Below, one piece after another: positions 5,201-41,177 of a DNA stretch of 64,000 nt (its first letter is position 1; every line of letters starts with the position of its first letter). The DNA lies in IMG/VR virus record IMGVR_UViG_2880412407_000002, one strand, 5' to 3'. Position numbers and translations under genes: made by a program. The DNA comes from a virus (taxonomy: Duplodnaviria > Heunggongvirae > Uroviricota > Caudoviricetes). The notes under the pieces were generated by a model. The model had not been told where the DNA came from, ran no database searches, and saw only the letters and a program-made list of their open reading frames with translations.

Positions 5201-5210
5201 ATCCTGTTTT

Positions 5211-6780: not shown

Positions 6781-9700
6781 GTGGGTAAAGGGGGCGGCAA
6801 GGCGCACACGCCGGTAGAGGCAAAGGACAATCTTAAGTCCACGCAGATGATGAGCGTGATTGACGCCATTGGTGAAGGGCCGATTGAAGGTCCGGTGAAG
6901 GGGCTGCAGAGTATCCTGGTGAACAAAACCCCGCTGACGGACACGGACGGTAATCCTGTGATACATGGTGTGACAGCGGTCTGGCGCGCCGGGGAGCAGG
7001 AGCAGACACCGCCGGAAGGCTTTGAGTCCTCCGGGGCGGAAACCGCACTGGGCGTGGAAGTGACGAAGGCAAAGCCGGTGACGCGCACCATTACGTCCGC
7101 GAACATTGACCGCCTGCGGGTCACCTTCGGGGTGCAGTCACTGTTGGAGACCACCTCAAAGGGCGACCGTAATCACTCTTCTGTCCGACTGCTGATTCAG
7201 TTGCAGCGTAACGGTAACTGGGTGACGGAAAAGGATGTCACCATTAACGGCAAGACCACCTCGCAGTTTCTGGCGTCGGTGATTCTGGGTAATCTGCCGC
7301 CCCGGCCCTTTAACATCCGGATGGTCAGGGAGACGGCGGACAGCACCACGGACCAGCTGCAGAATAAGACGCTCTGGTCGTCATACACCGAAATCATCGA
7401 TGTGAAACAGTGCTACCCGAACACGGCGATTGTGGGGCTGCAGGTGGATGCGGAGCAGTTTGGTGGCCAGCAGATGACGGTGAACTACCATATCCGCGGT
7501 CGCATCATTCAGGTACCGTCAAACTATGACCCGGAAAAACGCACTTACAGCGGTATCTGGGACGGCAGCCTGAAACCGGCATACAGCAATAACCCGGCCT
7601 GGTGCCTGTGGGACATGCTGACCCACCCGCGCTACGGAATGGGAAAACGTCTGGGGGCGGCGGATGTGGACAAGTGGGCGCTGTATGCCATCGGGCAGTA
7701 CTGCGACCAGACGGTCCCGGATGGTTTCGGGGGCACAGAGCCGCGGATGACCTTTAATGCGTACCTGTCACAACAGCGTAAGGCGTGGGACGTTCTCAGT
7801 GATTTCTGCTCGGCGATGCGCTGTATGCCGGTATGGAACGGGCAGACGCTGACGTTTGTGCAGGACCGTCCGTCAGATGTGGTGTGGCCCTACACAAACA
7901 GTGATGTGGTGGCTGACAATGAAGGTGTGGGATTCCGCTACAGTTTCAGCGCCCTGAAGGACCGTCATACTGCGGTGGAGGTGAATTACACCGACCCGCA
8001 TAACGGCTGGCAGACCTCCACGGAACTGGTGGAAGACCCGGAAGCCATACTGCGCTACGGACGCAACCTGCTGAAGATGGATGCGTTCGGCTGCACCAGT
8101 CGCGGTCAGGCCCACCGTGCCGGGCTGTGGGTGATAAAGACCGGACTGCTGGAAACGCAGACGGTGGATTTCACGCTCGGGTCACAGGGGCTGCGTCACA
8201 CACCCGGTGACATTATTGAAATCTGTGATAACGACTATGCCGGGACCATGACCGGCGGACGTGTCCTGTCCATCGATGCCGCCAGCCGCACCCTGACGCT
8301 GGACCGTGAGGTGACACTGCCGGAGACAGGTACATCGGCGGTGAACCTGATTAACGGCAGCGGTAAGCCGGTGAGTGTGGACATCACCGCACACCCCGCG
8401 CCGGACCGGATACAGGTCAGTACCCTGCCTGATGGTGTGGAGACATACGGGGTGTGGGGACTCTCCCTGCCGTCACTGCGCCGTCGCCTGTTCCGCTGTG
8501 TCTCCATCCGGGAAAACACGGACGGCACCTTTGCCATCACGGCGGTGCAGCACGTACCGGAAAAGGAAGCCATCGTGGATAACGGGGCCAGCTTTGAGCC
8601 GCAGTCAGGCACCCTGAACAGCGTCATCCCTCCGGCAGTGCAGCACCTGACGGTGGAGGTGAGCGCAGCTGACGGCCAGTATCTGGCGCAGGCGAAATGG
8701 GACACGCCGCGGGTGGTGAAGGGCGTGCGCTTCAGTCTGCGCCTGACCAGTGGAAGCGGTGAGGACAGCCGTCTGGTGACCACCGCCATCACCGCGGATA
8801 CAGAGCACCGTTTCAGCGGTCTGCCGCCGGGGGAATACACCCTGACGGTCAGGGCGATTAACAGTTATGGCCAGCAGGGGGAACCGGCCACCACCACGTT
8901 CAGGATTAATGCACCTGCGGTACCCGCCACGATTGAGCTGACACCGGGCTATTTTCAGATAACAGCGGTCCCGCGTCTTGCGGTGTATGACCCGACGGTA
9001 CAGTTTGAGTTCTGGTTTTCGGAGACAAAAATCGCAGACACATCTCAGGTGGAAACCTCTGCCCGTTATCTGGGGACCGGCAGTCAGTGGAGTGTATCCG
9101 GCCCGCACATTAAGCCCGGGAAGGATTTCTGGTTTTACGTGCGCAGCGTCAACCTGGTGGGGAAATCTGCTTTTGTGGAAGCCAGTGGCCGGGCCAGCAA
9201 TGATGCAGAAGGGTATCTGGGGCTGTTTCGGGAAAAAATAGGAAAACTGCATCTGGCTCAGGGGCTGTGGGAGCTGATAGATAACAGCCAGCTTGCGGAT
9301 GAGATGGCGGAGATGAAGACCTCCATCACCGAAACCCGCAATGAAATCACACAGACGGTCAGTAAAACGCTGGAGGACCAGAGCGCCATCATACAGCAGA
9401 TACAGCGCGTGCAGAAGGACACAAATGATGACCTTGCTGCACTTTACATGCTGAAGGTACAGAAAACAAAAAATGGCATACCCTATGTTGCCGGTATTGG
9501 AGCGGGGATTGAGGATACTGATGGCCAGCCACTGAGCAACATACTGCTGCTGGCTGACCGTATCGCGATGATAAATCCGGAGAGCGGCAACAGCACGCCG
9601 TTATTTGTGGCGCAGGGGAATCAGCTGTTCATGAACGACGTGTTCCTGAAACGACTGTTTGCGGTGAGCATCACGTCATCCGGCAATCCTCCGGCATTTT

Positions 9701-10257
9701 CCCTGACGCCGGACGGGCGACTGACGGCGAAAAATGCGGATATCAGTGGCAGTGTGAATGCGAACTCAGGGACGCTCAACAACGTCACGATTAATGAGAA
9801 CTGTCAGATTAAGGGGAAACTGTCAGCCAACCAGATTGAAGGCGATATTGTCAAAACGGTCAGCAAGTCTTTCCCCCGCACGAGCACTTATGCCAGTGGC
9901 ACCATCACGGTAAGAATCAGTGATGATCAGAAGTTTGACCGGCAGGTCATGATACCGCCAGTGTTATTCCGCGGTGGTAAGCATGAGAATTTCAACAGTA
10001 ATAACCAACAGTCATACTGGTATTCAACCTGCCGGTTAAGAGTGACCCGCAATGGTCAGGAGATTTTTAATCAGTCCACGACGGATGCTCAGGGCGTATT
10101 TTCCTCAGTTATAGATATGCCTGCCGGACAGGGGACGCTGACACTGACATTCACCGTATCTTCATCAGGAGCGAATAACTGGACACCAACAACCAGTATC
10201 AGCGATCTGCTGGTTGTGGTGATGAAAAAATCCACAGCAGGTATCAGTATCAGCTGA
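6781..10257 (+). CDS. J: Tip attachment / host specificity protein J (GTG start)
   Basis: 1158 aa; lambda J-like N-terminus [23 protein letters not shown]-terminal region diverges from copy B. Confidence 0.9.
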
Positions 10258-10323
10258 ATTTTATAACCCAGAACGGGCGTCAGAAATGACGCCTTTTTTA
10301 TTGCAGAAAAGCGAGAGGTAATT

Positions 10324-10922
10324 ATGCGTAAACTTTATGCCGCCATTTTGTCCGCAGCCATCTGTCTGGCCGTATCCGGCGCGCCTGCATGGGCGTCTGA
10401 GCAGCAGGCCACGCTGAGCGCGGGGTATCTTCATGCCCGGACGAGCGCTCCCGGCAGCGATGATCTTAACGGGATTAACGTGAAATACCGTTATGAGTTT
10501 ACGGACACACTGGGGATGGTGACGTCGTTCAGCTATGCAGGAGACAAGAATCGCCAGATTACCCGTTACAGCGATACCCGCTGGCATGAAGATTCCGTTC
10601 GTAACCGCTGGTTCAGCGTAATGGCGGGGCCGTCTGTGCGCGTGAATGAATGGTTCAGCGCGTATGCGATGGCGGGTGTGGCTTACAGCCGTGTGTCGAC
10701 TTTCTCCGGGATTATCTTCGCGTAACTGACAACAAGGGGAAAACGCACGATGTGCTGACCGGAAGTGATGACGGTCGCCACAGCAACACGTCTCTGGCGT
10801 GGGGAGCTGGCGTGCAGTTTAACCCGACCGAATCCGTGGCCATTGATATTGCTTATGAAGGTTCTGGCAGTGGTGACTGGCGCACTGACGGGTTCATCGT
10901 GGGTGTTGGTTATAAATTCTGA
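10324..10922 (+). pseudogene. lom: Outer membrane protein Lom, frame broken near 10708-10710
   Basis: Two ORFs (10324..10725, 10650..10922) together match the intact 199-aa copy at 59696..60295; GGG here versus GGGG there. Confidence 0.8.
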
Positions 10923-10986
10923 TTAGCCAGGTAACACAGTGTTATGACAGCCCGCCGGTTCAGGCGGGCTTTTTTGTGGGGTGAAT

Positions 10987-12298
10987 ATGGCAGTAAAGAT
11001 TTCAGGTGTACTGAAAGACGGCACAGGAAAACCGGTAGAGAACTGCACCATTCAACTGAAAGCCAGACGGACCAGCAGCACGGTGGTGGTGAACACGGTG
11101 GCCTCTGAAAATCCGGATGAAGCCGGTCGTTACAGCATGGACGTTGAGTACGGTCAGTACAGAGTCATTCTGTTGGTGGAAGGATTCCCGCCGTCACATG
11201 CCGGGACCATCACCGTGTATGAAGATTCTCAACCCGGTACGCTGAATGATTTTCTCGGTGCCATGTCGGAGGATGACGTCCGGCCGGAGGCACTGCGCCG
11301 TTTTGAACTGATGGTGGAAGAGGTGGCGCGTCACGCTGAGGAGGCGAAGAAGAATGCCGGAGAGGCGGAGACGTCAGCAAGGAATGCCGGCATATCAGCC
11401 AGTCAGGCAGAAAAGAGCGCTGCACATGCTGACACTTCAGCAGGATATGCATCGGAGTCAGCCCGGCAGGCGGCAGAAAGTGCAGCCTCAGCAAAGCAGT
11501 CAGAGGAGGCGTCCTCGTCCTCGGCCTCTGAGGCCGCTCAAAAAGCCAGTGAGTCATCACAAAGTGCAGCAGAAGCTGAATTGTCAAGAAAGACGGCAGA
11601 AAGTGCAGCCGGTAATGCAGCCAGGGATGCAACGACCGCAACAGAAAAAGCCCGGGAGTCAGCAGAAAGCGCACAGTCAGCGGAACAAAGCAGGATAGCG
11701 GCGGAAGAAGCCGTAAACAGAATCCCCACCGTGGTGGGACCTCCCGGGCCAAAGGGGAACAGGGGCCCGCGGGTCCTCAGGGCTGAAGGGGGATAAGGGA
11801 GAGCGTGGTGACACCGGCCCTGTCGGGGCAACCGGCGAACGGGGACCGGCAGGTGATGCTGGTCCGGCAGGCCCGCAGGGGCCGAAAGGTGACAGGGGAG
11901 AGCGGGGAGAGACCGGTCTGACGGGAAATGCAGGTCCACAGGGTCCAAAGGGAGATACCGGTGCGGCAGGCCCGGCAGGCCCACAGGGACCGAAAGGAGA
12001 AACAGGTGCGGCTGGCCCGGTGGGGGCAACCGGACCTCAGGGACCGAAGGGCGACCCGGGGGAGACACAAATCCGTTTTCGTCTGGGGCCGGCGAGCATT
12101 ATTGAGACAAACAGCAATGGCTGGTTCCCGGATACAGATGGCGCACTCATCACCGGACTGACCTTTCTTGACCCCAAAGATGCCACACGGGTTCAGGGAC
12201 TGTTTCAGCATTTGCAGGTCAGATTTGGCGACGGGCCGTGGCAGGATGTCAAGGGGCTGGATGAAGTGGGCAGTGATACAGGCAGAACAGGAGAATGA
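10987..12298 (+). pseudogene. stf: Side tail fibre with collagen-like Gly-X-Y repeats, two frame breaks in G runs (about 11754 and 11780-11792)
   Basis: ORFs 10981..11796 and 12020..12298 match the intact copy at 60360..61673. Confidence 0.75.
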
Positions 12299-12299
12299 C

Positions 12300-12569
12300 A
12301 TGAATATACTAAAAAAACTTATGCAGCGTCTGTGCGGTTGCGGAAAGCATGATGACCGTGAACACGGGGAGTTACTTACAGCACAGCTGCGACTGGGGCC
12401 GGCAGACATCCTGGAGTCAGATGAGAATGGCATTATCCCGGAGCAGGACAGGGTAATCACGCAGGTGGTGATACTGGATGCGGATAAAAAGCAGATACAG
12501 TGCGTGGTAAGACCGCTGCAAATCCTGCGTGCTGACGGGACGTGGGAAAATATTGGCGGGATGAAGTAA
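12300..12569 (+). CDS. Conserved 89-aa protein immediately after the tail fibre gene, function unknown
   Basis: MNILKKLMQRLCGCGKHD start; second copy at 61675..61944 and a 3' fragment at 62650..62783. Confidence 0.6.
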   Translation: MNILKKLMQRLCGCGKHDDREHGELLTAQLRLGPADILESDENGIIPEQDRVITQVVILDADKKQIQCVVRPLQILRADGTWENIGGMK

Positions 12570-28930: not shown

Positions 28931-29209
28931 ATGGCGCACGATACCAAATTATACAATTCTGATGATTCTGCCGTCTTTGCCAGCAGGCGCGGACGGTGTT
29001 TTCACGCATTCAAATCTGACTGGTACCAGCATCCCCCATGCACTGAAGAACAGGCCGAATGGCTCATTCAGTGTTACCGCAGGCGCGGATGCGAGGTTAA
29101 AAAAGCCCTTAGCCTCGACTACCGTCACTGGATAATCTCCGTCAGGCTCCCTTACTCCGAACAGCCACCGCGTCCGTCCCGCACATTCCAGCAACGGATC
29201 TGGAGGTAA
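28931..29209 (+). CDS. Hypothetical phage protein
   Basis: ORF from internal Met MAHDTKLYNSDD. Confidence 0.35.
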   Translation: MAHDTKLYNSDDSAVFASRRGRCFHAFKSDWYQHPPCTEEQAEWLIQCYRRRGCEVKKALSLDYRHWIISVRLPYSEQPPRPSRTFQQRIWR

Positions 29210-29283
29210 TGTGCGGGTATTACTTCGACCTGTTCTGGTACCGGAACTCGGTCTGGTTATCGTTAAGCCAGGCCGTGAATCCA

Positions 29284-30259
29284 TGCGGGTATTTCATGGC
29301 GGCAGGGTGCTGGTGGAGTCTGAACCGAAAAGCATGCGTAATCTGCCGTCCGGGGTCGTTCCTGCCGTTCGCCAGCCGCTGGCGGAAGATAAATCATTAC
29401 TGCCATTTTTCAGCAATGAGCGTGTGATTCGTGCTGCTGGTGGCGCTGGTGCACTGTCTGACTGGTTATTACGTCACGTTAAATCCTGCCAGTGGCCTCA
29501 TGGTGATTATCATCACAGCGAAACTGTCATACATCGTTACGGTACCGGCGCGATGGTGTTGTGCTGGCACTGCGACAACCAGCTGCGCGACCAGACATCC
29601 GAATCACTTGAGCAACTTGCTCAACAAAACCTGTCAGCATGGATGATTGACGTCATCCGCCACGCAATGAATGGCATACAGGAACGGGAATTATCGCTGG
29701 CTGAATTATCCTGGTGGGCAGTCTGCAATCAGGTGGTGGACGCATTACCTGAGGCAGTATCGCGTCGTTCTCTGGGATTACCGGCGGAAAAAATCCGCTC
29801 CGTATACCGTGAAAGCGACATCATACCGGGAGAACAGACCGCCACCAGCATACTGAAGCAGCGCACAAAAATATTGCGCTACCGCCTCACACCCACCAGC
29901 AACAGAACCCACCACAGGAAAAGACGGTGGTCAGCATTGCCGTTGATCCGGAGTCTCCGGAATCCTTCATGAAACGACCTAAACGTCGCCGCTGGGTAAA
30001 TGAGAAATACACACGCTGGGTAAAGACACAGCCGTGTGCGTGTTGTGGTAAGCCAGCGGACGATCCTCATCATCTGATTGGTCATGGTCAGGGTGGAATG
30101 GGAACAAAATCCCACGATATTTTCACGCTACCGCTGTGTCGGGAGCATCACAACGAGCTTCATGCGGATCCGCTGGCGTTCGAAGAAAAGCATGGTTCCC
30201 AGGTTGATTTAATTTTTCGTTTTCTTGATCACGCTTTTGCAACCGGCGTGCTCGGGTAA
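29284..30259 (+). pseudogene. DUF968 (YdfU-like) protein, apparently split into two frames near 29900-29930
   Basis: ORFs 29211..29972 and 29927..30259; second part has CxxC...HH zinc-binding-like motif; may be two genes. Confidence 0.45.
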
Positions 30260-30271
30260 AAGAGGTTACTG

Positions 30272-30643
30272 ATGCGTATAGAGTTTGTTTTGCCTTACCC
30301 GCCGACGGTGAACACCTACTGGCGACGTCGTGGCAGCACATATTTTGTATCAAAAGCCGGTGAGCGTTATCGCCGGGCTGTGGCGCTTATTGTTCGCCAG
30401 CAGCGGCTGAAATTAAGCCTGTCCGGACGGCTGGCAATAAAAATTATTGCAGAACCACCGGATAAGCGCCGCCGTGACCTGGACAACATTCTGAAAGCAC
30501 CGCTGGATGCGCTGACGCATGCGGAAGTGCTCATTGATGACGAGCAGTTTGATGAAATCAATATTGTGCGCGGTCAGCCTGTGCCAGGTGGACGGCTGGG
30601 CGTGAAGATTTACGAAATCAGAGGTGGTAACGATGGCGCGTGA
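30272..30643 (+). CDS. rusA: Holliday junction resolvase RusA
   Basis: [21 protein letters not shown]...[14 protein letters not shown]. Confidence 0.85.
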
Positions 30644-31004
30644 TATCCAGATGGTTCTTGAGCGATGGGGGGCATGGGCAGCAAATAATCATGAAGATGT
30701 AACATGGCCCTCGATAGCTGCTGGTTTTAAAGGATTAATCCCGACTAAAGTGAAATCACGTCCTCAGTGTTCTGATGATGACGCCATGATAATTTGTGGT
30801 TGTATGGCACGATTAAACAAGAATAATCAGTATTTGCACGATTTGTTGGTGGATTATTACGTAGGTGGAATGACATTTATGGCTCTTGCACGTAAGCATA
30901 GATGTTCTGATGGGCTTATTGGTAAAAGGCTTTATAAAGCGGAAGGTATTATTGAAGGAATGCTTATGGCTCTGAATGTCCGGTTAGATATGGATATGCG
31001 GTAG
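30633..31004 (+). CDS. Late-gene antitermination protein Q-like
   Basis: 123 aa; position after rusA and before the late region. Confidence 0.6.
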
Positions 31005-31155
31005 GGATATATAGTGATGAGGGTTATGTTTTCTATGTTTATAATTAACATGTTTATTTTTTGATGGTCATGTATTGTGGAAGGTAGATAAAATGTTGCC
31101 TGGTGAATTGAAAATATTGATAATCAATCTTCATCATTAAATAAAAGGAGTGCTT

Positions 31156-31974
31156 ATGTGGATTGTGTTAGTACTGTCACTGTCAACTCTCAGTTGGCAT
31201 AAGGTAGTGGCTTTTTCATTGTTGACGGTGTCTGTTGTCCTGGCTGTGCTTAATGATATTATTGATTGGTCGGTGTTATTTTTTGTTGCTACAATCGTTT
31301 TTTTTATTATTTTGAAGTTCAACTGGAAATATAACGCCTGGGCTAAATCTATATATGAAGTTGGCATAGTTTTATCAGCCATAGCATTATCTTTCCATCT
31401 ATGGCCAGGGTTTCACAATCCTGTAGTGCTAAATTCTGTTACTGTTGGCCCTCAGAGTACTCCCTATACAATGTATTTTAATTTTGATAAAGCGCTGGTG
31501 CCATTTTTGTTAGTCCTGTGTACATCTTCTTTGTTTAAAAAAGAAGTAAAATCAGAAGTGTCTTTGTGGAAGTGGGGGGCTCTGTCGCTCTCTGTTCCTC
31601 TTATCCTGTTTTTGGCTGTTTTTTTTGGTGGATTAAAGCCAGAGATTCATTTTCCTGAGTGGTTGCCAGAGTTTATATTGGCTAATTTGTTTTTTGTGTC
31701 TCTGGCAGAGGAATCATTATTTAGAGGGTATATTCAATCACGGCTATCAGAAGTAACGTCTCCATTGGTTGCATTAATTGTGGCGGCTTTGTTGTTTGGT
31801 TTTTATCACTATTCAGGTGGTGCTTTACTTGTATTATTTGCCACGTTATCTGGTGTTGTGTATGGATTGTCATGGATGTGGAGTGGGCGTTTGTGGGTTG
31901 CCACCCTTTTCCATTTTGGTTTGAATCTGTGTCACTTGTTATTCTTTACCTATCCATTTTTAAAACATAATTGA
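31156..31974 (+). CDS. CPBP-family (CAAX protease / Abi) intramembrane metalloprotease
   Basis: Multi-pass membrane protein with EExxxR (AEESLFRGY), FxxxH (FGFYHY) and HFGLN motifs; AT-rich. Confidence 0.75.
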   Translation: MWIVLVLSLSTLSWHKVVAFSLLTVSVVLAVLNDIIDWSVLFFVATIVFFIILKFNWKYNAWAKSIYEVGIVLSAIALSFHLWPGFHNPVVLNSVTVGPQSTPYTMYFNFDKALVPFLLVLCTSSLFKKEVKSEVSLWKWGALSLSVPLILFLAVFFGGLKPEIHFPEWLPEFILANLFFVSLAEESLFRGYIQSRLSEVTSPLVALIVAALLFGFYHYSGGALLVLFATLSGVVYGLSWMWSGRLWVATLFHFGLNLCHLLFFTYPFLKHN

Positions 31975-32260
31975 TTTTTTCTATGGTTTTAAATTTATAA
32001 GACTGAAAAATAGCAGGACGTGACATTTGCATGAAAAATATGCACGGCAAAGCATTTACGTACGTAAAAAATCAGGTATGCTGTTAAGAGTGGTTATTTC
32101 GCCGCATAGCTTGACCCCGCCTCTGAGCGGGTTTTTTGTGCCCGCAAAGTAGCGCAGTGCGTTAAATGTGCTGGTAGTTATTAATACAGGTCTTTCAGCT
32201 TGCTGGCTTTTTCGGCAAGAGTTATTGGTGTGTCACGTTAACCGGAAAGGGTAAAAAGAC

Positions 32261-32458
32261 ATGCTGAAACAGCAGGATATGACAGAAACCGCCAGAGTTG
32301 TGTTTGATGAATTAAGCGTCACCGAACCGGCGACAGTCGGGGAGATTGCGCAGAATACTTACCTTTCACGCGAACGCTGCCAGTTAATACTGACCCAGCT
32401 TGTTATGGTGGGTCTGGCAGACTATCAGTGCGGTTGTTACAGACGCCTTCAGTCCTGA
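32261..32458 (+). CDS. Small putative DNA-binding protein
   Basis: 65 aa; Shine-Dalgarno-like sequence upstream. Confidence 0.4.
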   Translation: MLKQQDMTETARVVFDELSVTEPATVGEIAQNTYLSRERCQLILTQLVMVGLADYQCGCYRRLQS

Positions 32459-32595
32459 AGGCTTTTTTATTTGTGGTAAATGGGCGGCTGGTGGGTGTTA
32501 GCGGCACCTGTCAGTCCTTTGCTTATGTGTTGATGATAATTTACCTTTTGGGGCTATAATTGAACTAACCAATTGCTAATGAAAGTAAAATTATA

Positions 32596-33309
32596 ATGGT
32601 TGTTGTCTGTTCAGTTATCATGGTTTGCTCCCCAATTAATATTTTTCTTGAAAAGGATACGTTGTCACTTAAGCCCGGCTCAGTCGTTCTGGCCACCAAA
32701 TGCATCAGGGCGCTTTTCCTTATGCATTATGGCAAAGTTAAAATTTTCGATATAAACCATTCCATAGTAAGTCAATATCTGGAAATTCAGCATAAGCTGA
32801 CAAGAACTCATCTGACTGACGTTCCGCTTTATCTGTCACTGGAACCCAACAACCCTGCGTTGGCTGAGGCTTTAATTACCAGCCAGAGATTTTCCGGAGA
32901 TACCACGGATATGTTTCTTATGATGGCATGCCTGTCGCTGTTTGAATCAGATGAACGGATATTATTATTTTTAAGTGGATGTTTATCCAGTATAAGTGCC
33001 AAAGTCAGGGCGATAATTCAGACAGATATATCAGCAAGCTGGACGCTTGGTGCGATTGCGTTACGCCTGCATATGAGTGAGAGTTTGTTAAAGATAAAAC
33101 TGAAAAATGAAGGGCACATGTTCAGTCGCTTGTTGCTGGAAGAGCGGATGCGTGTTGCTGTGAATATGTTATGTTCCCGGCATGGATATGGACAGGCTGT
33201 AGCAGAAAAATGCGGTTATTCAAGCTGGTCCTACTTTATTTCTGTATTTCACCGCTATTATGGCTTCCCGCCAGACAGATATGTATCCAGGCAAGGGCTT
33301 GATTATTGA
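32596..33309 (+). CDS. AraC-family transcriptional regulator
   Basis: C-terminal AraC HTH (WTLGAIALRLHMSESLLKIKLK...GYSSWSYFISVFHRYYGFPP); AT-rich. Confidence 0.75.
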   Translation: MVVVCSVIMVCSPINIFLEKDTLSLKPGSVVLATKCIRALFLMHYGKVKIFDINHSIVSQYLEIQHKLTRTHLTDVPLYLSLEPNNPALAEALITSQRFSGDTTDMFLMMACLSLFESDERILLFLSGCLSSISAKVRAIIQTDISASWTLGAIALRLHMSESLLKIKLKNEGHMFSRLLLEERMRVAVNMLCSRHGYGQAVAEKCGYSSWSYFISVFHRYYGFPPDRYVSRQGLDY

Positions 33310-33337
33310 TTTTCATCTGATTATTATTTTTTGACCC

Positions 33338-33413
33338 GGCCCTTTAGCTCAGTGGTGAGAGCGAGCGACTCATAATCGCCAGGTCGCTGGTTCAAATCCA
33401 GCAAGGGCCACCA
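33338..33413 (+). tRNA. ileZ: tRNA with CAU anticodon (ileZ-like tRNA-Ile2 or tRNA-Met)
   Basis: 76 nt cloverleaf folded by hand; anticodon loop cuCAUaa; CCA end. Confidence 0.85.
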
Positions 33414-33420
33414 TCACATA

Positions 33421-33497
33421 CCGCCATTAGCTCATCAGGAAAGAGCGCCAGCCTTCGAAGCTGGCTGCGCGGGGTTCAAGTCCCCGATGGCGGTCCA
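33421..33497 (+). tRNA. argN: tRNA-Arg (anticodon UCG)
   Basis: 77 nt; anticodon loop cuUCGaa; 7-bp acceptor stem; CCA end. Confidence 0.8.
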
Positions 33498-33510
33498 TTA
33501 TCTGCATCAT

Positions 33511-33587
33511 GCGTTGTTAGCTCAGCCGGACAGAGCAATTGCCTTCTAAGCAATCGGTCAGTGGTTCGACTCCACTACAACGCGCCA
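33511..33587 (+). tRNA. argO: tRNA-Arg (anticodon UCU)
   Basis: 77 nt; anticodon loop cuUCUaa; 7-bp acceptor stem; CCA end. Confidence 0.85.
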
Positions 33588-33756
33588 CACTTATTTTCCA
33601 GGCTCGCTTCGGCGGGCCTTTTTTGTATCTGCGCCACGCCCGGCGCATATCAACCACAGAGCCTTTCGGGGGTGAGCTTACGGAGTGGTCAGTGTGACTT
33701 TCTCTGTGGGCAGATCGCTCCCGGGCGTTGGCTCACCCACCCAAAGGAACGTCACG

Positions 33757-34188
33757 ATGTTTGGAATCTTCAAAAAGAAAACCCGCAGAGCGGCAGCGGA
33801 AATTAAAAAGTTTGAGAAACGCGATCTGGCACAGGCGGTGATTAACGCTGCATACCTGGTGGCCTATGCAGATGGTGAATGCGAGGCATCCGAGAAAGCG
33901 AAGATCGAACAGGTCTTACGTAATCAGCCTGCGTTGTCTGCGTTTACCTCGGAAATTAATGCGATTAGCGCAACCATTATCGGTCAGCTGGATACGAACT
34001 TTAAAATTGGTCGTCGTGCGGCGTTACGTGAGATCGAGGATGTGAAACACGATACGCGTGAAGCGGAAGATGTGCTGGATGTGGCGGTGGCCATTGCGGA
34101 GGCAGACGGCGAAATTGAGCCGGAAGAGCGCAAGGTGCTGGAAGAGATTGCCGGTGTTCTGGGTCTTCGTCTGGAGAATCACCTGTGA
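33757..34188 (+). CDS. TerB-like (tellurite-resistance TerB family) protein
   Basis: 143 aa from MFGIFKKKTRRAAAEIKK; acidic C-terminus. Confidence 0.5.
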   Translation: MFGIFKKKTRRAAAEIKKFEKRDLAQAVINAAYLVAYADGECEASEKAKIEQVLRNQPALSAFTSEINAISATIIGQLDTNFKIGRRAALREIEDVKHDTREAEDVLDVAVAIAEADGEIEPEERKVLEEIAGVLGLRLENHL

Positions 34189-34352
34189 CGGTAAAACTGC
34201 GCCTGGCTGTGGCTGCACTCCTGCTGTTTCTGGTGGTGATGGTGGATTTCACCAGCAGAATCATGTCGGTGCTGGCGGATGGGGTGCTGGTCTGCGGCAT
34301 TGTGGTATTGCTGTGGCCGGTGATAAAAAGAAACAGCCTGCATAATGCTTGA
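34185..34352 (+). CDS. Small hydrophobic membrane protein, start overlaps previous stop (GTGA)
   Basis: 55 aa VTVKLRLAVAALLLFLVVMV...; found manually. Confidence 0.35.
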   Translation: MTVKLRLAVAALLLFLVVMVDFTSRIMSVLADGVLVCGIVVLLWPVIKRNSLHNA

Positions 34353-34666
34353 TTTTTTTGTTTGCTGTTTATTAAAAACACTTCTGCATGGTGAATCCCC
34401 CTGTGCGGAGGGGCGATCAGCAACCAGGTATATGGGATAATCGCGGATTCAGGTGCTGATACTGAATTCACCGGGAGGCACCCGGCACCATGCTTTGCCA
34501 CAAAAGTGTTGTTTCTGTTTTTCTCAAACTATCATCGTTATCCCTTTATTTCCGGCTGCGCATGGCGTGGCCTTTTTTTTACGACCAGCCACTGGCAGAT
34601 GGCCATCCTGTAATTTGATTCCGGTTCCGGCTTTTTAACTCTGTTCCTGTACACGGGAGAAATTCG

Positions 34667-36603
34667 ATGTCGATTAAACATTATGATGTTGTCAGGGCGG
34701 CGTCGCCGTCAGACCTTGCGGAAAAGCTGACACACAAACTGAAAGAGGGCTGGCAGCCGTTTGGTAGTCCGGTGGCCATCACGCCTTATACTCTGATGCA
34801 GGCCATTGCGGCGGAAGGTGATGTCACCACACCTGTGTTGGTGAAGCCGTCGGATGGAGAAGGCACAGTAATCAGCGCCACCAGAGACACGGAGTATTAC
34901 TTTGTTGTGGTTCTGGCGGGGCAGTCAAACAGCATGGCATATGGTGAAGGCCTTCCGCTGCCGGAGACATATGACCGTCCGGACCCGCGTATTAAGCAGC
35001 TGGCGCGCCGCAGTACGGTGACACCGGGCGGTGCAGCATGCAAATATAACGACATCATTCCGGCGGACCATTGTCTGCATGATGTGCAGGACATGAGCCG
35101 CCTTAACCATCCGAAAGCGGACCTGTCAAAGGGGCAGTACGGAACCGTGGGGCAAGGGCTGCATATCGCCAAAAATTGCTGCCGTTTATACCGGCGAATG
35201 CGGGCATTCTGCTGGTTCCGTGCTGTCGTGGTGGTTCAGCGTTCACCACCGGAGCCGATGGCACATACAGTGACGCGAGTGGTGCCTCGGAGAATTCAAC
35301 CCGCTGGGGTGTGGACAAGCCGCTGTATAAGGACCTTATCGGTCGAACAAAAGCAGCACTGAAGAAGAACCCGAAAAATGTGCTGTTTGCCGTGGTGTGG
35401 ATGCAGGGGGAATTTGATTTTGGCGGTACGCCGGTAAATCACGCAGCACAGTTTGGTGCGCTGGTTGATAAATTCCGTGCAGACCTGGCGGATATGGCAG
35501 GTCAGTGCGTCGGTGGCTCTGCTGGCGGTGTTCCCTGGATATGTGGAGATACGACGTATTTCTGGAAGCAGAAGAACGAATCCTCGTACCAGACGGTGTA
35601 CGGCAGCTACAAAAACAAAACGGAAAAGAATATCCATTTCGTACCGTTCATGACGGATGAGAACGGGGTGAATGTGCCGACGAACAAACCGGAAGAAGAC
35701 CCGGACATTCCGGGTATCGGATATTACGGTTCGAAATGGCGTGACAGCTCAGCCACCTGGACGTCACAGGACAGGGCGAGCCATTTCAGTTCATGGGCTC
35801 GCCGCGGGATTATTTCCGACCGTCTGGCAACGGCGATTTTGCGCCATGCGGGAAGAGTGGCGCTAAACGCGGGGGCATCATCGACAGTATCAGAGGTGCG
35901 CCCGTCATCGCCTTCCGGTGCAGAAGCCACAGGCGTCACAGCACTGCTCTCTTACCTTGCCAGCGAGTCAGAGGGAAGCCTGAAAGTACAGGGATGGTCA
36001 GCCAGTGGCGGCAGGGCAGAAGTGGTCAGCGATGCGGAGGGAACCGGAGGTAAGGCAGTGAAGCTGACCAAGGAAGCCGGTAAAAGCAGCTGGGTGCTGG
36101 AGTACGCCGCAGGCAACGGTGCGGCTCTGTTACAGAAAGGGGGGCAGATTCGCTGCCGCTTTAAGGTTTCGGGAGCGCTGGCTGCGAACCAGTATGTTAT
36201 GGCGTTTTACTGGCCGGTATCTTCACTGCCACAGGGCGTTGCCCTGACCGGAGACGGGGGGAATAACCTGCTGGCAGCGTTCTACATCCAGACAGATGCA
36301 AAAGACCTGAATGTGATGTACCACAATGCGAAAGTGGCGACAAACAACCTGAAACTGGGAACCTTTGGCGCATTTGATAACGAATGGCATACGCTGGCTT
36401 TCCGCTTTGCCGGGAATAACAGCCTTCAGGTGACGCCGGTTATTGATGGTCAGGTTGGCACACCGTTCACGCTGACGCAGTCACCGGTCAGTGCCTTTGC
36501 GGCGGATAAACTGCATGTGACAGACATTACCAGAGGTGCGACTTACCCGGTACTGATAGACAGCATTGCGGTGGAAGTGAACAGCACAGACACTGCGGCA
36601 TGA
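34667..36603 (+). pseudogene. nanS-p: Prophage sialate O-acetylesterase NanS-p-like, frame broken in A5 run (35171-35175)
   Basis: ORFs 34667..35362 and 35176..36603; SGNH-type VVLAGQSN motif; position after the tRNAs. Confidence 0.65.
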
Positions 36604-36738
36604 TAAAAAAACCGCCAGCGACAGGAATGGACGCTGGCGGTGGTGATACCTATGGAGAAAAAATAAAGGAACGATACTTTCGTACTCTGGTTTTTTAATG
36701 AAAACAGTTCTTATTGTCAACAATAACGGAAAGAAATT

Positions 36739-36918
36739 ATGACATTTCTGAACCAGTTAATGCTGTACTTCTGTACGGTGGTCTGTGTGCTGTATCTCCT
36801 TTCGGGTGGATACCGGGCCATGCGTGACGTCTGGCGCAGACAGATTGACAAAAGGGCCGCTGAGAAAATCAGCGCCAGTCAGTCAGCCGGAAGCAAACCC
36901 GAAGAGCCGCTCATTTAG
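36739..36918 (+). CDS. Small membrane protein (59 aa)
   Basis: MTFLNQLMLYFCTVVCVLYLLSGG; found manually. Confidence 0.35.
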   Translation: MTFLNQLMLYFCTVVCVLYLLSGGYRAMRDVWRRQIDKRAAEKISASQSAGSKPEEPLI

Positions 36919-36958
36919 CGGCAACTTTCTTAATCACATCTTTCGACGAGAAAATCCC

Positions 36959-37231
36959 ATGTCAGAAATTACATCCCTGGTCACTGCTGAAGCAGTGAAG
37001 GAAGTCCTGCGCTCTGAAGAAGTCCGGAGCGCACTGAAACAAAAACTTCGCCATAACCTGGAAGCGCGTCTTGATGCAGAGGTTGATGCCATTCTGGATG
37101 AGCTGCTTGGTGTACAGGCAGAGCCACCGACTGAAGCGGGAGATACCACCGCAGAGAGCGGTGAAGTTCAGCCTGAATCACCGGTCGCCGATGCGACTGA
37201 ACCTCAACCCGAATCGGTCATGATGCTGTAA
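36959..37231 (+). CDS. Small acidic protein upstream of holin
   Basis: 90 aa [21 protein letters not shown]. Confidence 0.45.
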
Positions 37232-37307
37232 CGGGGAGTCAGGGCCATCAGTAAACAGCTGCTGGCCTTTTTCATGTTGTGAGCTTCCGGATAACGGGAG
37301 ACGGGGT

Positions 37308-37523
37308 ATGTACCAGATGGAAAAAATCACAACGGGTGTGTCATACACCACGTCAGCGGTGGGAACGGGATACTGGTTACTGCAGCTGCTGGACAAAGTC
37401 TCTCCGTCCCAGTGGGTGGCGATAGGTGTGCTGGGGAGTCTGCTGTTTGGCCTGCTGACGTATCTGACTAACCTGTATTTCAAAATCAGAGAGGACCGTC
37501 GTAAGGCGGCGCGGGGAGAGTAA
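37308..37523 (+). CDS. S: Pinholin S (phage 21 type) with dual-start motif
   Basis: Two in-frame Met codons three codons apart give 71 and 68 aa; C-terminus [20 protein letters not shown]. Confidence 0.8.
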
Positions 37524-37527
37524 AGCG

Positions 37528-37872
37528 ATGAAGAAAAAATACGAACTGGGTGTTAAAGGGATAAATAATTACCCGGATAAGATTACTGTTACTGTGGCAC
37601 TGGAAATTGGTGGGTATCCGTCACTGTTGTTGCCAAATGTGGCGATTAGTCTTGACCGTACTGAAGGTGCCACGCTGGAGTTTTACGAAGCTGAGGCGAA
37701 AAAGCAGGCGAAGCAGTTTTTCATGGATGTTGCTGCCGGGTTATGTGAAGGGGATGGTCCGTTGCCGGAAAAGCGCCCCATCATTTTAGAGGCGCAGGAT
37801 GTGTTGATAACCTACAGAGGAAAACTACCGGGAATAATTACTGGTTCTCTGAAGACTCCACCGCTGGCCTGA
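37528..37872 (+). CDS. YdfR-like protein between holin and endolysin
   Basis: 114 aa; same position as ydfR in Qin. Confidence 0.45.
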   Translation: MKKKYELGVKGINNYPDKITVTVALEIGGYPSLLLPNVAISLDRTEGATLEFYEAEAKKQAKQFFMDVAAGLCEGDGPLPEKRPIILEAQDVLITYRGKLPGIITGSLKTPPLA

Positions 37873-37922
37873 AGACTTAACATATCCAGGGATTTGAAAT
37901 CGATAAACCCTGATAAATATCC

Positions 37923-38456
37923 ATGAACGCAAAAATCAGATACGGCCTGTCGGCTGCCGTTCTGGCGCTGATTGGTGCAGGGGCGTCTGCGCCTGAAATC
38001 CTCGACCAGTTTCTTGACGAAAAAGAAGGTAACCACACCACGGCATACCGTGATGGTGCGGGGATCTGGACCATCTGCCGCGGTGCCACCCGAGTGGATG
38101 GTAAGCCTGTCGTCCCGGGTATGAAGTTATCGAAGGAAAAGTGCGACCAGGTTAACGCCATTGAACGTGATAAGGCGCTGGAGTGGGTGGAGCGCAATAT
38201 TAAAGTACCGCTGACCGAACCCCAGAAGGCGGGTATCGCGTCATTTTGTCCTTATAACATTGGCCCCGGTAAGTGTTTCCCGTCGACGTTTTACAGACGG
38301 ATTAATGCCGGTGACCGCAGGGGAGCATGCGAGGCGATTCGCTGGTGGATTAAGGACGGTGGCAGAGACTGCCGTATTCGCTCAAACAACTGCTACGGTC
38401 AGGTCTCACGGCGTGACCAGGAGAGCGCGCTGGCGTGCTGGGGAATTGACAGATAA
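37923..38456 (+). CDS. R: Signal-anchor-release (SAR) endolysin, lysozyme family
   Basis: N-terminal weakly hydrophobic segment LSAAVLALIGAGASA followed by E-x9-D-x5-T catalytic spacing. Confidence 0.8.
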   Translation: MNAKIRYGLSAAVLALIGAGASAPEILDQFLDEKEGNHTTAYRDGAGIWTICRGATRVDGKPVVPGMKLSKEKCDQVNAIERDKALEWVERNIKVPLTEPQKAGIASFCPYNIGPGKCFPSTFYRRINAGDRRGACEAIRWWIKDGGRDCRIRSNNCYGQVSRRDQESALACWGIDR

Positions 38457-38754
38457 GCAGAATATTTTGCTGAAAAATGCGATTTGCTCACGCGGACGGA
38501 TAACACGAAATCCTGCGAACTGACAAAAACTAAGTGAATAAAAGTAAAAACCCCGTTTGTTGGCTGCAAGCGGGGTTTTGTGTTTCCTGACTCCGGAAAA
38601 GTCAAAGGAGAAAGTGTGTTTGATTTTAGCAAACTGATTCGGGAGATTCGAGTGATGGCTGAAAAAATATCCACCTGGAAGTTCATCCTTATCTGGCTGG
38701 TGTTTGTGATTATGGCCTCCGGTTATTTCATCGGTCAGATACGCTGGTGGTGAA

Positions 38755-39222
38755 ATGAACCGCGTACTGTGCGTGGTCATCATTGCCCTGCTGGTGGCCT
38801 GTGGTGCGCTTAGTCTGGGGCTGAATCATTACCGCGATAACGCCATTACCTACAAAGCGCAACGCGATAAAAAAGCCAGTGAGCTGAAGCTGGCGAACGT
38901 GACAATTACTGATATGCAGATACGCCAGCGTGATGTCGCTGCACTTGATGCCAGATACTCGAGGGAATTAGCCGATGCGAGAGCTGAAAATGAAACTCTG
39001 CGTGCTGATGTTGCCGCTGGTCGTAAGCGCCTGCGGATCAACGCCACCTGCTCCGGTACCGTGCGTGAAGCCACCGGCACCTCCGGCGTGGATAATGCAA
39101 CCGGCCCCCGACTGGCAGACACCGCTGAACGGGATTATTTCATCCTCAGAGAACGGCTGATGGCAATGCAGAAGCAACTGGAAGGAGCACAGGAATATAT
39201 CCGTACCCAGTGTATACCGTGA
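38755..39222 (+). CDS. Rz: Inner-membrane spanin Rz
   Basis: N-terminal transmembrane segment then coiled-coil; follows endolysin. Confidence 0.8.
38975..39160 (+). CDS. Rz1: Outer-membrane lipoprotein spanin Rz1, embedded in Rz in another frame
   Basis: Lipobox LVVSAC and proline-rich body. Confidence 0.7.
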
Positions 39223-39644
39223 TGTTTTGTTATGAAGGTGTTACTGATAATGTTAAGGCAATTTAACAAAGAGTCAGTTCCGGACTTTATAATGTGCTCA
39301 GTTCATGGCCAAAAACGATTTCTGTGATAAATATTTTGAATATTATTTACAGGTAAATGGAGTGGGCGCATGGATAGAAATATTACAATAGAGTATGAAG
39401 TATATGCCCGTATTGTATGGGCAGAGAAGGCAAAACACGGTAATTCCGTGTGTTGCCATGATACCTGATTGGCAGAATAGTTGTTTGGTTTTGAGTATAT
39501 AGTCAGCGTTTTTTGTTCGGTAATTGCTCTTTCAATTAAAATGCCAGATATGATTTGCTTTTCTTTGTTGTTTAGTTTTTTATTATTGTCTTATTAAGGA
39601 CGGTAAATTCAGGATAGTAGTCTGTAGATAAACGGAGGTTACTT

Positions 39645-39959
39645 ATGCTACATGATCACCTGGCAGAATGTCTGGAGAAAAAAGGACTGTACCGGAGAGC
39701 TGCTGAACGATGGGCAAAAGTGATGGTACAGCTAAGTGATGACCAGAAAAGAAAAGTGGCGGCACAGAAACGAGCAGAGTGTTTGCGTAAGGCGCGCCGG
39801 ACTCCGGTTTCACCGGTGAACCTGACCGAAATAAAACAAGCGGTCAACAGACTACATTCTGAGTTGGGAATGGGATTTGAAGAGCGGCGGGTATTCCGAC
39901 GATATAAAGGGACAGGAGAACAGAATACGTCCGGAAACGCGCGGTCAAAAAAATGCTAA
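39645..39959 (+). CDS. PerC-family (Pch-like) regulator, tentative
   Basis: 104 aa; LEKKGLYRRAAERWAKVM resembles PerC; very AT-rich upstream region. Confidence 0.45.
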   Translation: MLHDHLAECLEKKGLYRRAAERWAKVMVQLSDDQKRKVAAQKRAECLRKARRTPVSPVNLTEIKQAVNRLHSELGMGFEERRVFRRYKGTGEQNTSGNARSKKC

Positions 39960-40040
39960 AAAATATCTGAGAGAGTTATTGCCTGTTACCATAAGAAAAA
40001 GCGACTTTAGTGGTCGCTTTTTGTGTCATATATAAGTCGT

Positions 40041-40265
40041 TTAAGTAAACCTGTCTGAACAGGTGCTCTGGTCGTGTTTGTCTTTGTTGGGTACAAATTG
40101 AGAATATTTTTCATTAATTAATCTTCTTCTGCAGGCTTCAATAACCCACGCTGAAAAATTACCTGAACCTTTCAGGTCAAGAGCGATGTTAATTTGTTCA
40201 ATTATCTGGTTTGGAAATCGGATGTTGCGGGTTGTTGTTCTGCGGGTTCTGTTCTTTGATGACAT
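40041..40265 (-). CDS. Small ribbon-helix-helix-type DNA-binding protein
   Basis: 74 aa; IRFPNQIIEQINIALD...NFSAWVIEACRRRL fits a strand-helix-helix pattern. Confidence 0.45.
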   Translation of the reverse strand: MSSKNRTRRTTTRNIRFPNQIIEQINIALDLKGSGNFSAWVIEACRRRLINEKYSQFVPNKDKHDQSTCSDRFT

Positions 40266-40472
40266 AATGTTGCCCCGTATTCAGTGTTGCTGATTTGTAT
40301 TATCTGAAGTTGCTTTTACGCTAATTTGATGCAGATCAATTAATACGATACCTGCGTAATAATTGATTATTTCTCGTGGTTTGATGGCGTACACACATGT
40401 CGTGATAAACCTCATGTAGATGATAATTATTATCATTTTCGTGGGTCCTTTCCGGCGATCCGACAGGTTACG

Positions 40473-40484
40473 GGGCGGCGACCT
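40473..40484 (+). other. cos: cosN cohesive-end site, lambda type
   Basis: cgacaggttacg|GGGCGGCGACCT cgcgggttttcgctatttatgaaaattttccgg matches the lambda right-end/left-end junction. Confidence 0.8.
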
Positions 40485-40514
40485 CGCGGGTTTTCGCTAT
40501 TTATGAAAATTTTC

Positions 40515-40625
40515 CGGGATCCATGTCCGGTTTCTCTTCAAGTTAACTATATGAAAAATATAAAAACAGGTCTTCTGTGAACCGGACATGCACAAAAAAT
40601 AGATATGTAAACCGGACATGACCGG
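40515..40625 (+). promoter_or_regulatory. cosB-like region with three ccggacatg repeats (one inverted)
   Basis: Repeats at 40522-40530 (inverted), 40582-40590 and 40612-40620, between cosN and the small terminase gene. Confidence 0.6.
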
Positions 40626-40667
40626 TTTTGTTGTGATTGTGAGGTGAGAGTTTTTGCGAGGTGAGGA

Positions 40668-41177
40668 GTGGCTACGCAGACTGAAGTTGCCAGGCATTTA
40701 AGTCTGACCGATCGCCAGCTTCGCAGATTGCAGAAATTGCCGGGTGCCCCGATATCAAATAAGCGAGGGCAACTGGATCTGGATGCCTGGCGCGATTTTT
40801 ACATATCGTATCTGAGGAGAAGTAAAAACGATGTGCCTGATGGCGATAGCGAAGACGACTATGAGGAAAAATTGCTTATTGCCAGATGGGAACTGACAGC
40901 AGAACAGGCTGTTACACAGCAGTTAAAAAATGAGGTGTCAAAAGGAAAACTTATTGACACCGGGTTCTGTATTTTTGCCCTCAGTAAGCTGGCAATGGCG
41001 TTATCCAGTACGCTTGATTCCATCCCTTTATCCATGCAACGACAGTTTCCTGATTTAACACCGCGCCATCTTGACCATCTGAAAACCCTTATTGCTAAGG
41101 GGGCAAATCAGTGTGCGCGGGCGGGGGATAAATTACCGGATTTACTCGATGAATATATCAGAGCAACAACTGAATAA
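40668..41177 (+). CDS. Nu1: Terminase small subunit Nu1-like (GTG start)
   Basis: 169 aa; resembles lambda Nu1 in the FCIFALSKLA...LPLSMQRQFP region. Confidence 0.8.
   Translation: MATQTEVARHLSLTDRQLRRLQKLPGAPISNKRGQLDLDAWRDFYISYLRRSKNDVPDGDSEDDYEEKLLIARWELTAEQAVTQQLKNEVSKGKLIDTGFCIFALSKLAMALSSTLDSIPLSMQRQFPDLTPRHLDHLKTLIAKGANQCARAGDKLPDLLDEYIRATTE

Follow-up and report, generated by a model that had tools for sequence, protein, structure and literature searches.

A TerB/DUF3927 cassette and its conserved structured leader at the stx position of a lambdoid prophage

We analyzed a stretch of 64,000 nucleotides (nt) from the IMG/VR virus record IMGVR_UViG_2880412407_000002, hereafter the window, with a focus on positions 33338-36603, where three transfer RNA (tRNA) genes are followed by a gene for a TerB-family protein, a gene for a small DUF3927 membrane protein, and the phage sialate O-acetylesterase gene nanS-p. 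The TerB and DUF3927 genes occupy the position of the Shiga toxin (Stx) genes, because the same flanks border stx2AB in the phage Stx2a_1447, and the TerB gene is preceded by a conserved structured leader of ~105 nt. The region is very probably the start of the late operon in a lambdoid prophage that appears to be complete, carries effectors but no stx, and resides in an Escherichia coli O121:H19-type strain of the attaching/effacing pathotype. Its architecture is already known and very common: the TerB/DUF3927 pair was annotated earlier in RefSeq and in phage records, and lambdoid prophages of the non-Stx kind that have phage tRNAs and nanS-p are documented and abundant in the genomes of enterohaemorrhagic and enteropathogenic E. 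coli (EHEC and EPEC). The only fresh point of the locus is the leader, a conserved RNA element that has not been annotated.

The observed order of the scaffold is Q, an AT-rich island, the ileZ/argN/argO tRNAs, a terminator, the leader, TerB, DUF3927, an STnc100 small RNA (sRNA) gene, nanS-p, and then the lysis and structural genes. From the tRNAs to the end of nanS-p, the following features were identified:

33338..33413, + strand: tRNA-Ile2 (CAT), ileZ type; ARAGORN, Rfam tRNA 72.5 bits; 76/76 identical to ileZ of Stx2a_1447
33421..33497, + strand: tRNA-Arg (TCG), argN type; ARAGORN, Rfam 58 bits; 73/77 identical to argN of Stx2a_1447
33511..33587, + strand: tRNA-Arg (TCT), argO type; ARAGORN, Rfam 67.3 bits; 74/77 identical to argO of Stx2a_1447
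33600..33647, + strand: left border of the slot, a hairpin resembling an intrinsic terminator with a T-run (33600-33626) and a small hairpin (33630-33647); terminator scan and alignments
33653..33756, + strand: conserved structured leader of TerB, ~105 nt; pattern search, alignments and fold analysis
33757..34188, + strand: TerB-family protein of the TciA type, 143 amino acids; Pfam TerB E 2.9e-16, PDB 2JXU E 4.4e-8
34185..34352, + strand: DUF3927/TciB-type membrane protein, 55 amino acids, two hydrophobic helices; Pfam DUF3927 E 4.3e-17
34357..34580, + strand: right border of the slot, an STnc100-family sRNA gene (Rfam RF02076 match 34357-34529) with a terminator-like hairpin ending in T8 (34554-34580)
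34667..36603, + strand: nanS-p, phage sialate O-acetylesterase, frameshifted copy; Pfam DUF1737, SASA and DUF6645

The slot between the post-tRNA terminator and the STnc100 gene

In the Stx2a and Stx2c phages (Stx2a_1447, AP012536; 933W type), the late genes are arranged in the order Q - ileZ argN argO - stx2AB - STnc100/EcOnc27 - nanS-p - S R Rz. These phages align with the window at 95-96% identity over the tRNAs and the 48 base pairs (bp) that follow them (33335-33635), and no alignment to Stx2a/2c phages is found for positions 33636-34367. In Stx2a_1447 the alignment resumes with a 49-bp piece at 34368-34416 and then extends from nanS-p through the lysis genes at 96% identity (34674-38551), and the phage interval that corresponds to 33636-34367 (L003 6305-7673) contains stx2A and stx2B. 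Thus, the window and the Stx2a/2c phages have in common the tRNA triplet with an entirely identical ileZ, the post-tRNA terminator with its small hairpin, the post-cargo sRNA family, and the nanS-p and lysis genes. The window differs from the Stx2a phages in that TerB and DUF3927 with their structured leader replace stxAB and in that it carries another Q allele; moreover, it has an AT-rich island with CPBP and AraC-family genes at a place taken in the Stx2a phage by other genes, one of them for a DNA methylase, and lacks an antirepressor insert that is present in the lysis cassette of the Stx2a phage.

The slot is the position of a cassette of ~730 bp, comprising the leader, TerB, and DUF3927, with a conserved terminator on its left and the STnc100 sRNA gene on its right. 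The left border after the argO trailer is common to Stx2a phages, to phage JLK-2012, which has other tRNAs, and to TerB-carrying Klebsiella and E. coli phages. At the right border, the STnc100 gene fills the 314-bp gap between the DUF3927 open reading frame (ORF) and nanS-p, where the earlier note had no sRNA; it begins within 5 nt of DUF3927 without an ORF between them, and it matches RF02076 over the full length of the model (positions 1-206) with 104.7 bits against a gathering score of 47. In Stx2a_1447, stx2B is immediately followed by a member of this family (L003 7662-7877), as is tciB, the DUF3927-type gene, in JLK-2012. The Hfq-binding sRNA EcOnc27/sRNA103, which overlaps STnc100, has been published as located just downstream of stx2B, and both published STnc_100 primers for quantitative PCR match the window exactly. 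Judged by its sequence, the STnc100 gene of the window is a homologue of EcOnc27/sRNA103. The window therefore displays the hallmarks of an Stx-type scaffold, namely a tRNA triplet downstream of Q, an sRNA of the STnc100/EcOnc27 type after the cargo, and nanS-p followed by holin, endolysin, and spanin genes.

An Stx-converting phage is defined by the presence of stxA and stxB, and neither was found: tblastn with Stx2A and Stx2B across all 64 kb gave a best E value of 0.5, in agreement with the earlier note, and the stx interval of Stx2a_1447 has no counterpart in the window. A total of 384 phage records match positions 33300-36650, at least 223 of them named Stx phages, and none covers more than 69% of the query. 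In the phage collection, TerB and stx cargos never occur together in the slot; the cassette is present in Evi, JLK-2012, and PPyecE_EH1910 only, and the Stx phages match the flanks only. The earlier note had read the region as an stx-negative relative of Stx phages or an alternative cargo in the stx slot. The breakpoints of the shared flanks against the Stx2a phage support this reading, which is not new. Alignment to a non-Stx prophage with a characterized gene, regarded in the same note as speaking against it, was found in one half: the region aligns with JLK-2012, and its genes are already annotated there as tciA and tciB, but these names were given by homology and the genes are not characterized.

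JLK-2012 (JQ347801, from O55:H7 strain DEC5E), to which Evi and PPyecE_EH1910 are similar, has the same arrangement as the window, with three tRNAs, tciA, tciB, STnc100, yjhS/nanS-p, and lysis genes, and its leader is identical. Unlike the window, its tRNAs are annotated as Asn, Thr, and Gly, its Q is another one, the AT-rich island is missing, and its nanS-p is only ~77% identical in DNA sequence. Delimiting the stx slot more precisely helps to interpret the gain and loss of stx in assemblies. As a separate observation, prophages of the PPompW type (e.g., LC567822) share the first 85 nt past argO (33588-33672) at 95% identity and then continue with an annotated insertion sequence (IS), ISEc20 of the IS110 family; the same slot may have been disrupted by an IS in these prophages.

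The three tRNAs are the only ones detected by ARAGORN across the whole window. The tRNA with the CAT anticodon is labelled "Met" by ARAGORN and tRNA-Ile by RefSeq, and its sequence is that of ileZ. The ileZ-argN-argO-type triplet named in the earlier note was accepted by both ARAGORN and Rfam (58-72 bits) and agrees with the genes of Stx2a_1447. The triplet decodes AUA, AGA, and CGA; in 41 prophage genes, codon use per 1000 is 6.1 for AUA, 6.1 for AGA, 4.6 for AGG, and 5.0 for CGA. The values for AGA and AGG are about 2-4 times those of E. coli K-12, and AUA is also more frequent than in K-12.

Two other accounts of the locus were considered along with its reading as a slot that carries either stx or TerB/DUF3927. 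A former Stx phage, in which stx was lost by deletion or replacement, would account for flanks that are common to Stx2a/2c phages nearly base for base, from ileZ and the post-tRNA terminator to nanS-p and the lysis genes, as well as for the similar Shine-Dalgarno contexts of stx2A and TerB (CCAAAGGAAC vs CAAAAGGAAC). Nevertheless, we regard such a history as improbable in comparison with a lineage that always carried TerB/DUF3927: no stx remnant was found in the window by tblastn, neither the early region nor the Q allele can be aligned to the Stx2a phage, and the TerB cassette is too widespread for a single loss, being found in 789 genomes with up to 10 copies and in Klebsiella phages in the same Q-to-lysis slot; in addition, the direction of exchange in mosaic lambdoid phages is not readable from one locus. 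It is hardly credible that the three tRNAs are left over from a tRNA integration site of the chromosome and do not belong to the phage, although a recent survey of prophage sRNAs took tRNA matches near such loci for integration hot spots. The tRNAs are placed ~18 kb into the prophage, after Q and before the lysis genes and distant from the integrase end, the ileZ/argN/argO genes of sequenced Stx phage genomes have the same or almost the same sequences, and in 972 kb of related viral contigs every tRNA but one is located directly upstream of TerB.

The leader of TerB and its two alternative folds

The leader pattern was detected in at least 120 IMG/VR stretches, and in the loci examined all 165 instances precede a TerB gene, which is intact in 153 cases and frameshifted in 12. 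Among the 153 intact genes, 149 have their start codon, ATG, 18 nt past the motif. The leader accompanies TerB genes that are 41-99% identical and that range from lambdoid phages to Erwinia and Salmonella jumbo phages; further copies are found, for instance, in Klebsiella phage 5 LV-2017 (L008:2896-3003), at L013:2896-3003, and in Erwinia phage ChrisDB (L006:1401-1503). It is conserved far better than the gene, with ~84% of the positions identical between leaders whose TerB proteins share 43%, and the leader types are shuffled among the TerB clades. A search of Rfam gave no relevant match for positions 33588-33790 at E<=10 (terminator-like noise only) or for positions 29000-41000 at E<=0.1; the leader is annotated in none of 29 phage records, its sequence string was not found in the searchable literature, and it is absent from the leader of stx2A. 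The possibility that the leader is a coding extension of TerB from the in-frame GTG at 33685 was rejected, since type-2 leaders have stop codons there.

Diverged relatives of the leader (31-43 bits with covariance model R1) are located directly upstream of antirepressor-like ORFs in the late region of Stx2a_1447 (L003:12401-12512) and of several IMG/VR prophages (L041:15699-15813, L049:6067-6180, and others), between the lysozyme and spanin genes. The ORFs behind them are of two kinds, of 189 and 231 amino acids, and no such copy is present in the window. In these relatives, the stem termed P1 shows a compensatory change to GAACC/GGUUC.

Two mutually exclusive folds were predicted for the leader. 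Fold A consists of the stem P1 (GAGCC/GGCUC) and a 10-bp stem P2 around a variable distal hairpin, where the 5' strand pairs with the internal segment UCGCUCCCGG and the Shine-Dalgarno sequence is free. In fold B, CCUUUCGGGGGUGAGC pairs with GGCUCACCCACCCAAAGG and buries the Shine-Dalgarno sequence; its consensus combines the same 5' strand, CCUUUCRGGGGUGAGC, with GGCUCACCCRCYNAAAGG. In the alignment, 96.4% of the cells pair in fold A versus 30-59% in slid controls, with five pairs that change on both sides, and 93.8% of the cells pair in fold B versus 29-62% in the controls. At column 16, covariation is seen with the partner in either fold, giving A-U, G-C, and G-U pairs in fold A and A-U (9) versus G-C (8) pairs in fold B. 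In four divergent versions of the leader, the energies of the two folds differ by no more than ~1-4 kcal/mol; the minimum-energy structure is fold B in three of them and fold A in the window type. An RNA thermometer was rejected as an explanation, as the predicted accessibility of the Shine-Dalgarno sequence barely changes between 25 and 42 C.

From this modelled structure, we tentatively propose that the leader may represent an undescribed family of cis-regulatory RNAs, a bistable translational gate that travels with phage accessory cassettes. Such a family would accompany TerB/TciB in lambdoid, Klebsiella, Actinobacillus, and Erwinia/Salmonella jumbo phages; in Stx phages, it would be found in diverged form ahead of antirepressor-like genes. 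Translation initiation of lambda cIII is reportedly controlled by alternative mRNA structures (Altuvia and colleagues, 1989); like the TerB leader, this phage mRNA would adopt either of two folds that exclude each other, and the ribosome-binding site is hidden in one of them. There is no sequence relationship between the two.

The TerB/DUF3927 pair, its expression and possible role

Both protein-coding genes of the cassette agree with what the earlier note had described as a TerB-like gene followed by a small membrane ORF. The match to the TerB profile (PF05099) covers residues 26-138 with 60.2 bits against a cut-off of 24.4, and the match to the solved Klebsiella TerB structure 2JXU is nearly full-length, albeit weak (36.7 bits). 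The protein is 97% identical to TciA of JLK-2012 and 42-51% identical to TciA of phage P1, from which the names tciA and tciB come, assigned by homology. Its invariant N-terminus is hydrophobic and polybasic (MFGxFKKK), and two acidic motifs of the ADG type are present. The membrane ORF is a DUF3927 gene whose GTG start overlaps the stop codon of TerB (GTGA), and its product reads as a two-helix hairpin with basic ends.

Relatives of TerB were found in 131 phage records, including virulent Erwinia jumbo phages (~70% identity), P1-like phage-plasmids, N4-like phages, and phages of Vibrio, Pseudomonas, Pantoea, and Paracoccus. An ORF of 50-67 amino acids follows TerB directly in 14 of the 16 lineages sampled, the window included, and 8 of the 10 partners scanned match DUF3927, in addition to the copy in the window. 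By this co-occurrence of the two sequences, TerB and DUF3927 form an old conserved unit. In E. coli, the 721-bp cassette (at least 80% coverage) is present in 789 of 5426 complete genomes, mostly of EHEC and EPEC serotypes, with a median of 4 places and a maximum of 10 per carrier. Among 80 IMG/VR loci with close TerB relatives, collected with a five-sequence TerB alignment and mostly close relatives from E. coli, the commonest layout (26 loci) is exactly that of the window, the variants differ in their tRNA set, and tRNAs lie less than 1.5 kb upstream of TerB in 59 (58 of the 79 evaluable loci).

Phage tRNA genes are found no more than about 1 kb away from the TerB/TciB pair in six of the 16 sampled lineages (the window, JLK-2012, P1, Erwinia jumbo phage ChrisDB, Klebsiella phage 5 LV-2017, and Pseudomonas phage nickie); for example, the three tRNA genes detected at the P1 locus flank tciABC, and in ChrisDB the pair is located inside a tRNA cluster. 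A general rule that TerB resides in tRNA clusters was rejected, as the other 10 lineages (N4-like, Vibrio, Pantoea, and Paracoccus phages and some Pseudomonas phages) show no such link. As in the window, a TerB-family TciA in P1 is followed by a DUF3927-type TciB, with phage tRNAs alongside that include a tRNA-Ile(CAT). However, P1 has a third small gene, tciC, that is absent from the window, its genes belong to the C1-controlled ban (early) operon, and the conserved leader was not detected before tciA.

The TerB protein of the terZABCDE operon (Klebsiella, 2JXU) belongs to the same Pfam family as that of the window, but the partner of the latter is a 55-amino-acid membrane peptide, whereas in the terZABCDE operon it is TerC. 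The partners encoded by the ter operon (TerC, TerD, TerE, TerA, and TerZ) are absent from the window and from the annotated identical locus, and no helicase, ATPase, or pore-toxin partner of the TerB-domain defence systems was found at the annotated locus. A PADLOC scan of TerB, DUF3927, and three proteins of the island, with models that do not include Dionysus, gave only a match at E 0.0035 to an unrelated stretch of 35 residues.

Two side observations concern TerB relatives elsewhere. The Vibrio phage vB_VpaP-MS02 (~77 kb; L015:36-3426) has a ter-like cluster of TerD, TerD, a hypothetical protein, TerC/Alx, and TerB, followed by a 64-amino-acid ORF, and is the sole sampled phage whose TerB has classical ter-operon neighbors. 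In the O104:H4 strain FDAARGOS_349 (L101:3516-3735) and in many commensals, a match of 84.5% identity covers positions 33638-33843, that is, the leader and the first ~90 nt of TerB. This partial match was rejected as a real copy, being a degraded remnant among IS21 and IS200/IS605 elements outside a prophage, annotated in RefSeq as a "partial DUF3927 pseudogene".

A consensus scan revealed sigma70-like candidates for the late promoter pR' at 31065-31137 and no sigma70-like site on the + strand of positions 33328-33756; terminator-like hairpins are located at 32116, 32445, 33600, 34554, and 36906. By analogy with late regulation in lambda and in Stx phages, Q-modified polymerase starting at pR' would read through about five intrinsic terminators, and the tRNAs, TerB/DUF3927, STnc100, nanS-p, and the lysis genes would be co-expressed mainly after induction, the cassette behaving like stx2; in Stx phages, nanS-p and stx are known to be co-induced. 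The structure comparison suggests that translation of TerB would be gated by the bistable leader, the closed form of which is predicted to pair the invariant CCUUU with the Shine-Dalgarno sequence; the leader could thereby time or limit TerB translation, a step that we put forward with low confidence.

The pair is retained by strictly virulent phages, and therefore its function should serve lytic growth. One possible role, which we advance with due reserve, is that TerB is a cytoplasmic helical protein acting at the inner membrane together with the translationally coupled DUF3927 during lytic growth, where the two would buffer or monitor the state of the envelope or of ions. Seen as such a membrane module, TerB/DUF3927 would not be a trait of lysogens only, given that virulent N4-like and jumbo phages have retained the pair, as has the early ban operon of P1. 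If true, the TerB/TciB module controlled by the leader would represent an ancient membrane function of the lytic cycle and not a "tellurite resistance" gene.

Several points weigh against this overall interpretation of the locus. In P1, tciA, tciB, and tciC were non-essential in a screen by CRISPR interference (CRISPRi), and they owe their names to homology alone. Because TerB domains also occur in host anti-phage systems such as Shango, Bunzi, and Dionysus, the pair might just as well serve defence or exclusion in the lysogen. The covariation in the leader comes from few independent lineages and from an alignment that was fitted to the model. That transcription would be late only is argued by analogy, and a promoter that does not fit the sigma70 consensus could exist; the pR' sites are candidates, and a foreign island of 2.3 kb separates Q from the tRNAs. 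Finally, the nanS-p gene is broken in the copy of the window.

As an alternative to a switch, the leader might be a boundary or linker at the DNA level for the homologous exchange of moron cassettes, or a processing hairpin of the RNase III type. The mixing of leader types and TerB clades, exemplified by L139 with a type-1 leader and a TerB of 45% identity and by L176 and L207 with type-2 leaders and a TerB of 91% identity, points to recombination at or near the leader, weaker leader relatives precede antirepressor-like genes elsewhere in the late region, and a long hairpin of ~30 bp would suit RNase III. We nonetheless consider such a boundary or processing element unlikely, if a serious contender, on the grounds that the orientation of the leader and its distance to the start codon are fixed, that both folds keep their pairing via compensatory changes (column 16 with both partners, and P1 G-C to A-U in the antirepressor type), and that the two folds remain so close in energy in four divergent versions, one of them always covering the Shine-Dalgarno sequence. 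As for the function of the pair, the ter operon has been linked in the literature to phage inhibition and colicin resistance, the TerB domains of Shango, Bunzi, and Dionysus have been proposed to be amphitropic and to survey the membrane, EHEC genomes keep 4-10 copies of the cassette, and morons of late regions often have promoters of their own. All this would be in keeping with a lysogenic-conversion trait, such as superinfection exclusion or anti-phage or colicin resistance. Such a trait appears rather unlikely, since the PADLOC defence models gave nothing beyond the match to an unrelated stretch, a terminator lies directly upstream and no sigma70-like promoter was found between it and TerB, and the same pair is kept by strictly virulent phages, in which a benefit to the lysogen is impossible. 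Whichever its role, TerB/DUF3927 is among the commonest uncharacterized cargos of pathogenic E. coli prophages, and the residual interest of the locus, low to moderate overall, lies in the leader RNA and in the role of this very abundant gene pair.

Prophage context and the nanS-p frameshift

The window is identical to RefSeq chromosomes of E. coli O121:H19 except for one 1-nt gap. According to the RefSeq annotation of the matching O121:H19 locus, a complete lambdoid prophage spans from the integrase at ~15.2 kb to the tail fibers at ~61.9 kb. Its gene order is integrase, repressor/cro region, replication genes, RusA, Q, AT-rich island, tRNAs, TerB, DUF3927, and SASA esterase, followed by holin, lysozyme, spanin, a PerC-family regulator, terminase, head and tail genes, and tail fibers. 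The features that surround the region under study are:

30624..31004, + strand: late antiterminator Q of the Phage_antitermQ family, at the start of the late operon; Pfam PF06530 E 4.9e-52, RefSeq "antiterminator Q family protein"
31150..33309, + strand: AT-rich island of 2.3 kb between Q and the tRNAs, GC content 0.34-0.44; Pfam, NCBIfam and composition profile
31150-31974, + strand: CPBP/Rce1-like intramembrane protease of the island; Pfam/NCBIfam
32261-32458, + strand: ORF of 65 amino acids in the island
32596-33309, + strand: YdeO/GadX-like AraC-family regulator of the island; Pfam/NCBIfam
37308..39222, + strand: lysis cassette continuing the late operon, with class II holin (37308-37523), YdfR-family protein, lysozyme (37923-38456), and Rz-type spanin (38755-39222); ORF list and RefSeq annotation of the identical locus

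The AraC-family regulator of the island probably belongs to the Psr family; Psr regulators are described in the literature as prophage-borne and associated with effectors and Pch/PerC, and the island regulator fits this description.

The nanS-p gene was correctly identified in the earlier note, as confirmed by its domains and by PDB matches to NanS-p (6YP6, E 2e-139) and NanS (3PT5, E 5e-71), but its reading frame of ~645 codons is not intact. A 1-nt deletion at 35171, which shortens a run of A6 to A5, splits the esterase domain into ORFs 34667-35362 and 35176-36603; the indel was mapped against NZ_CP027435, which encodes an intact NanS-p of 645 amino acids. The sister O121 assemblies have A6, strain 2015C-3107 has another homopolymer change at the position equivalent to 36256, and the A5 variant was seen in no other locus examined. 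An assembly error is as likely an explanation of the frameshift as a real pseudogene. The occurrence of nanS-p genes in non-Stx prophages is well documented.

Directly past the nanS-p stop codon, a sub-threshold match to Esr41 was observed on the - strand (36603-36680; 28 bits against a gathering score of 102, E 0.06); it overlaps a terminator-like hairpin and is probably a mere resemblance to a terminator. The window as a whole consists of two tandem lambdoid prophages, the first represented by its tail module (window positions 1-14900) with espK at ~13.3-14.4 kb and the second being the complete one (15196-63500). The early region of the complete prophage contains relBE, hokD, and dicB, its PerC/Pch-family regulator is encoded at 39645-39959, and an NleG effector gene is located at ~62.8 kb, past the end of the prophage.

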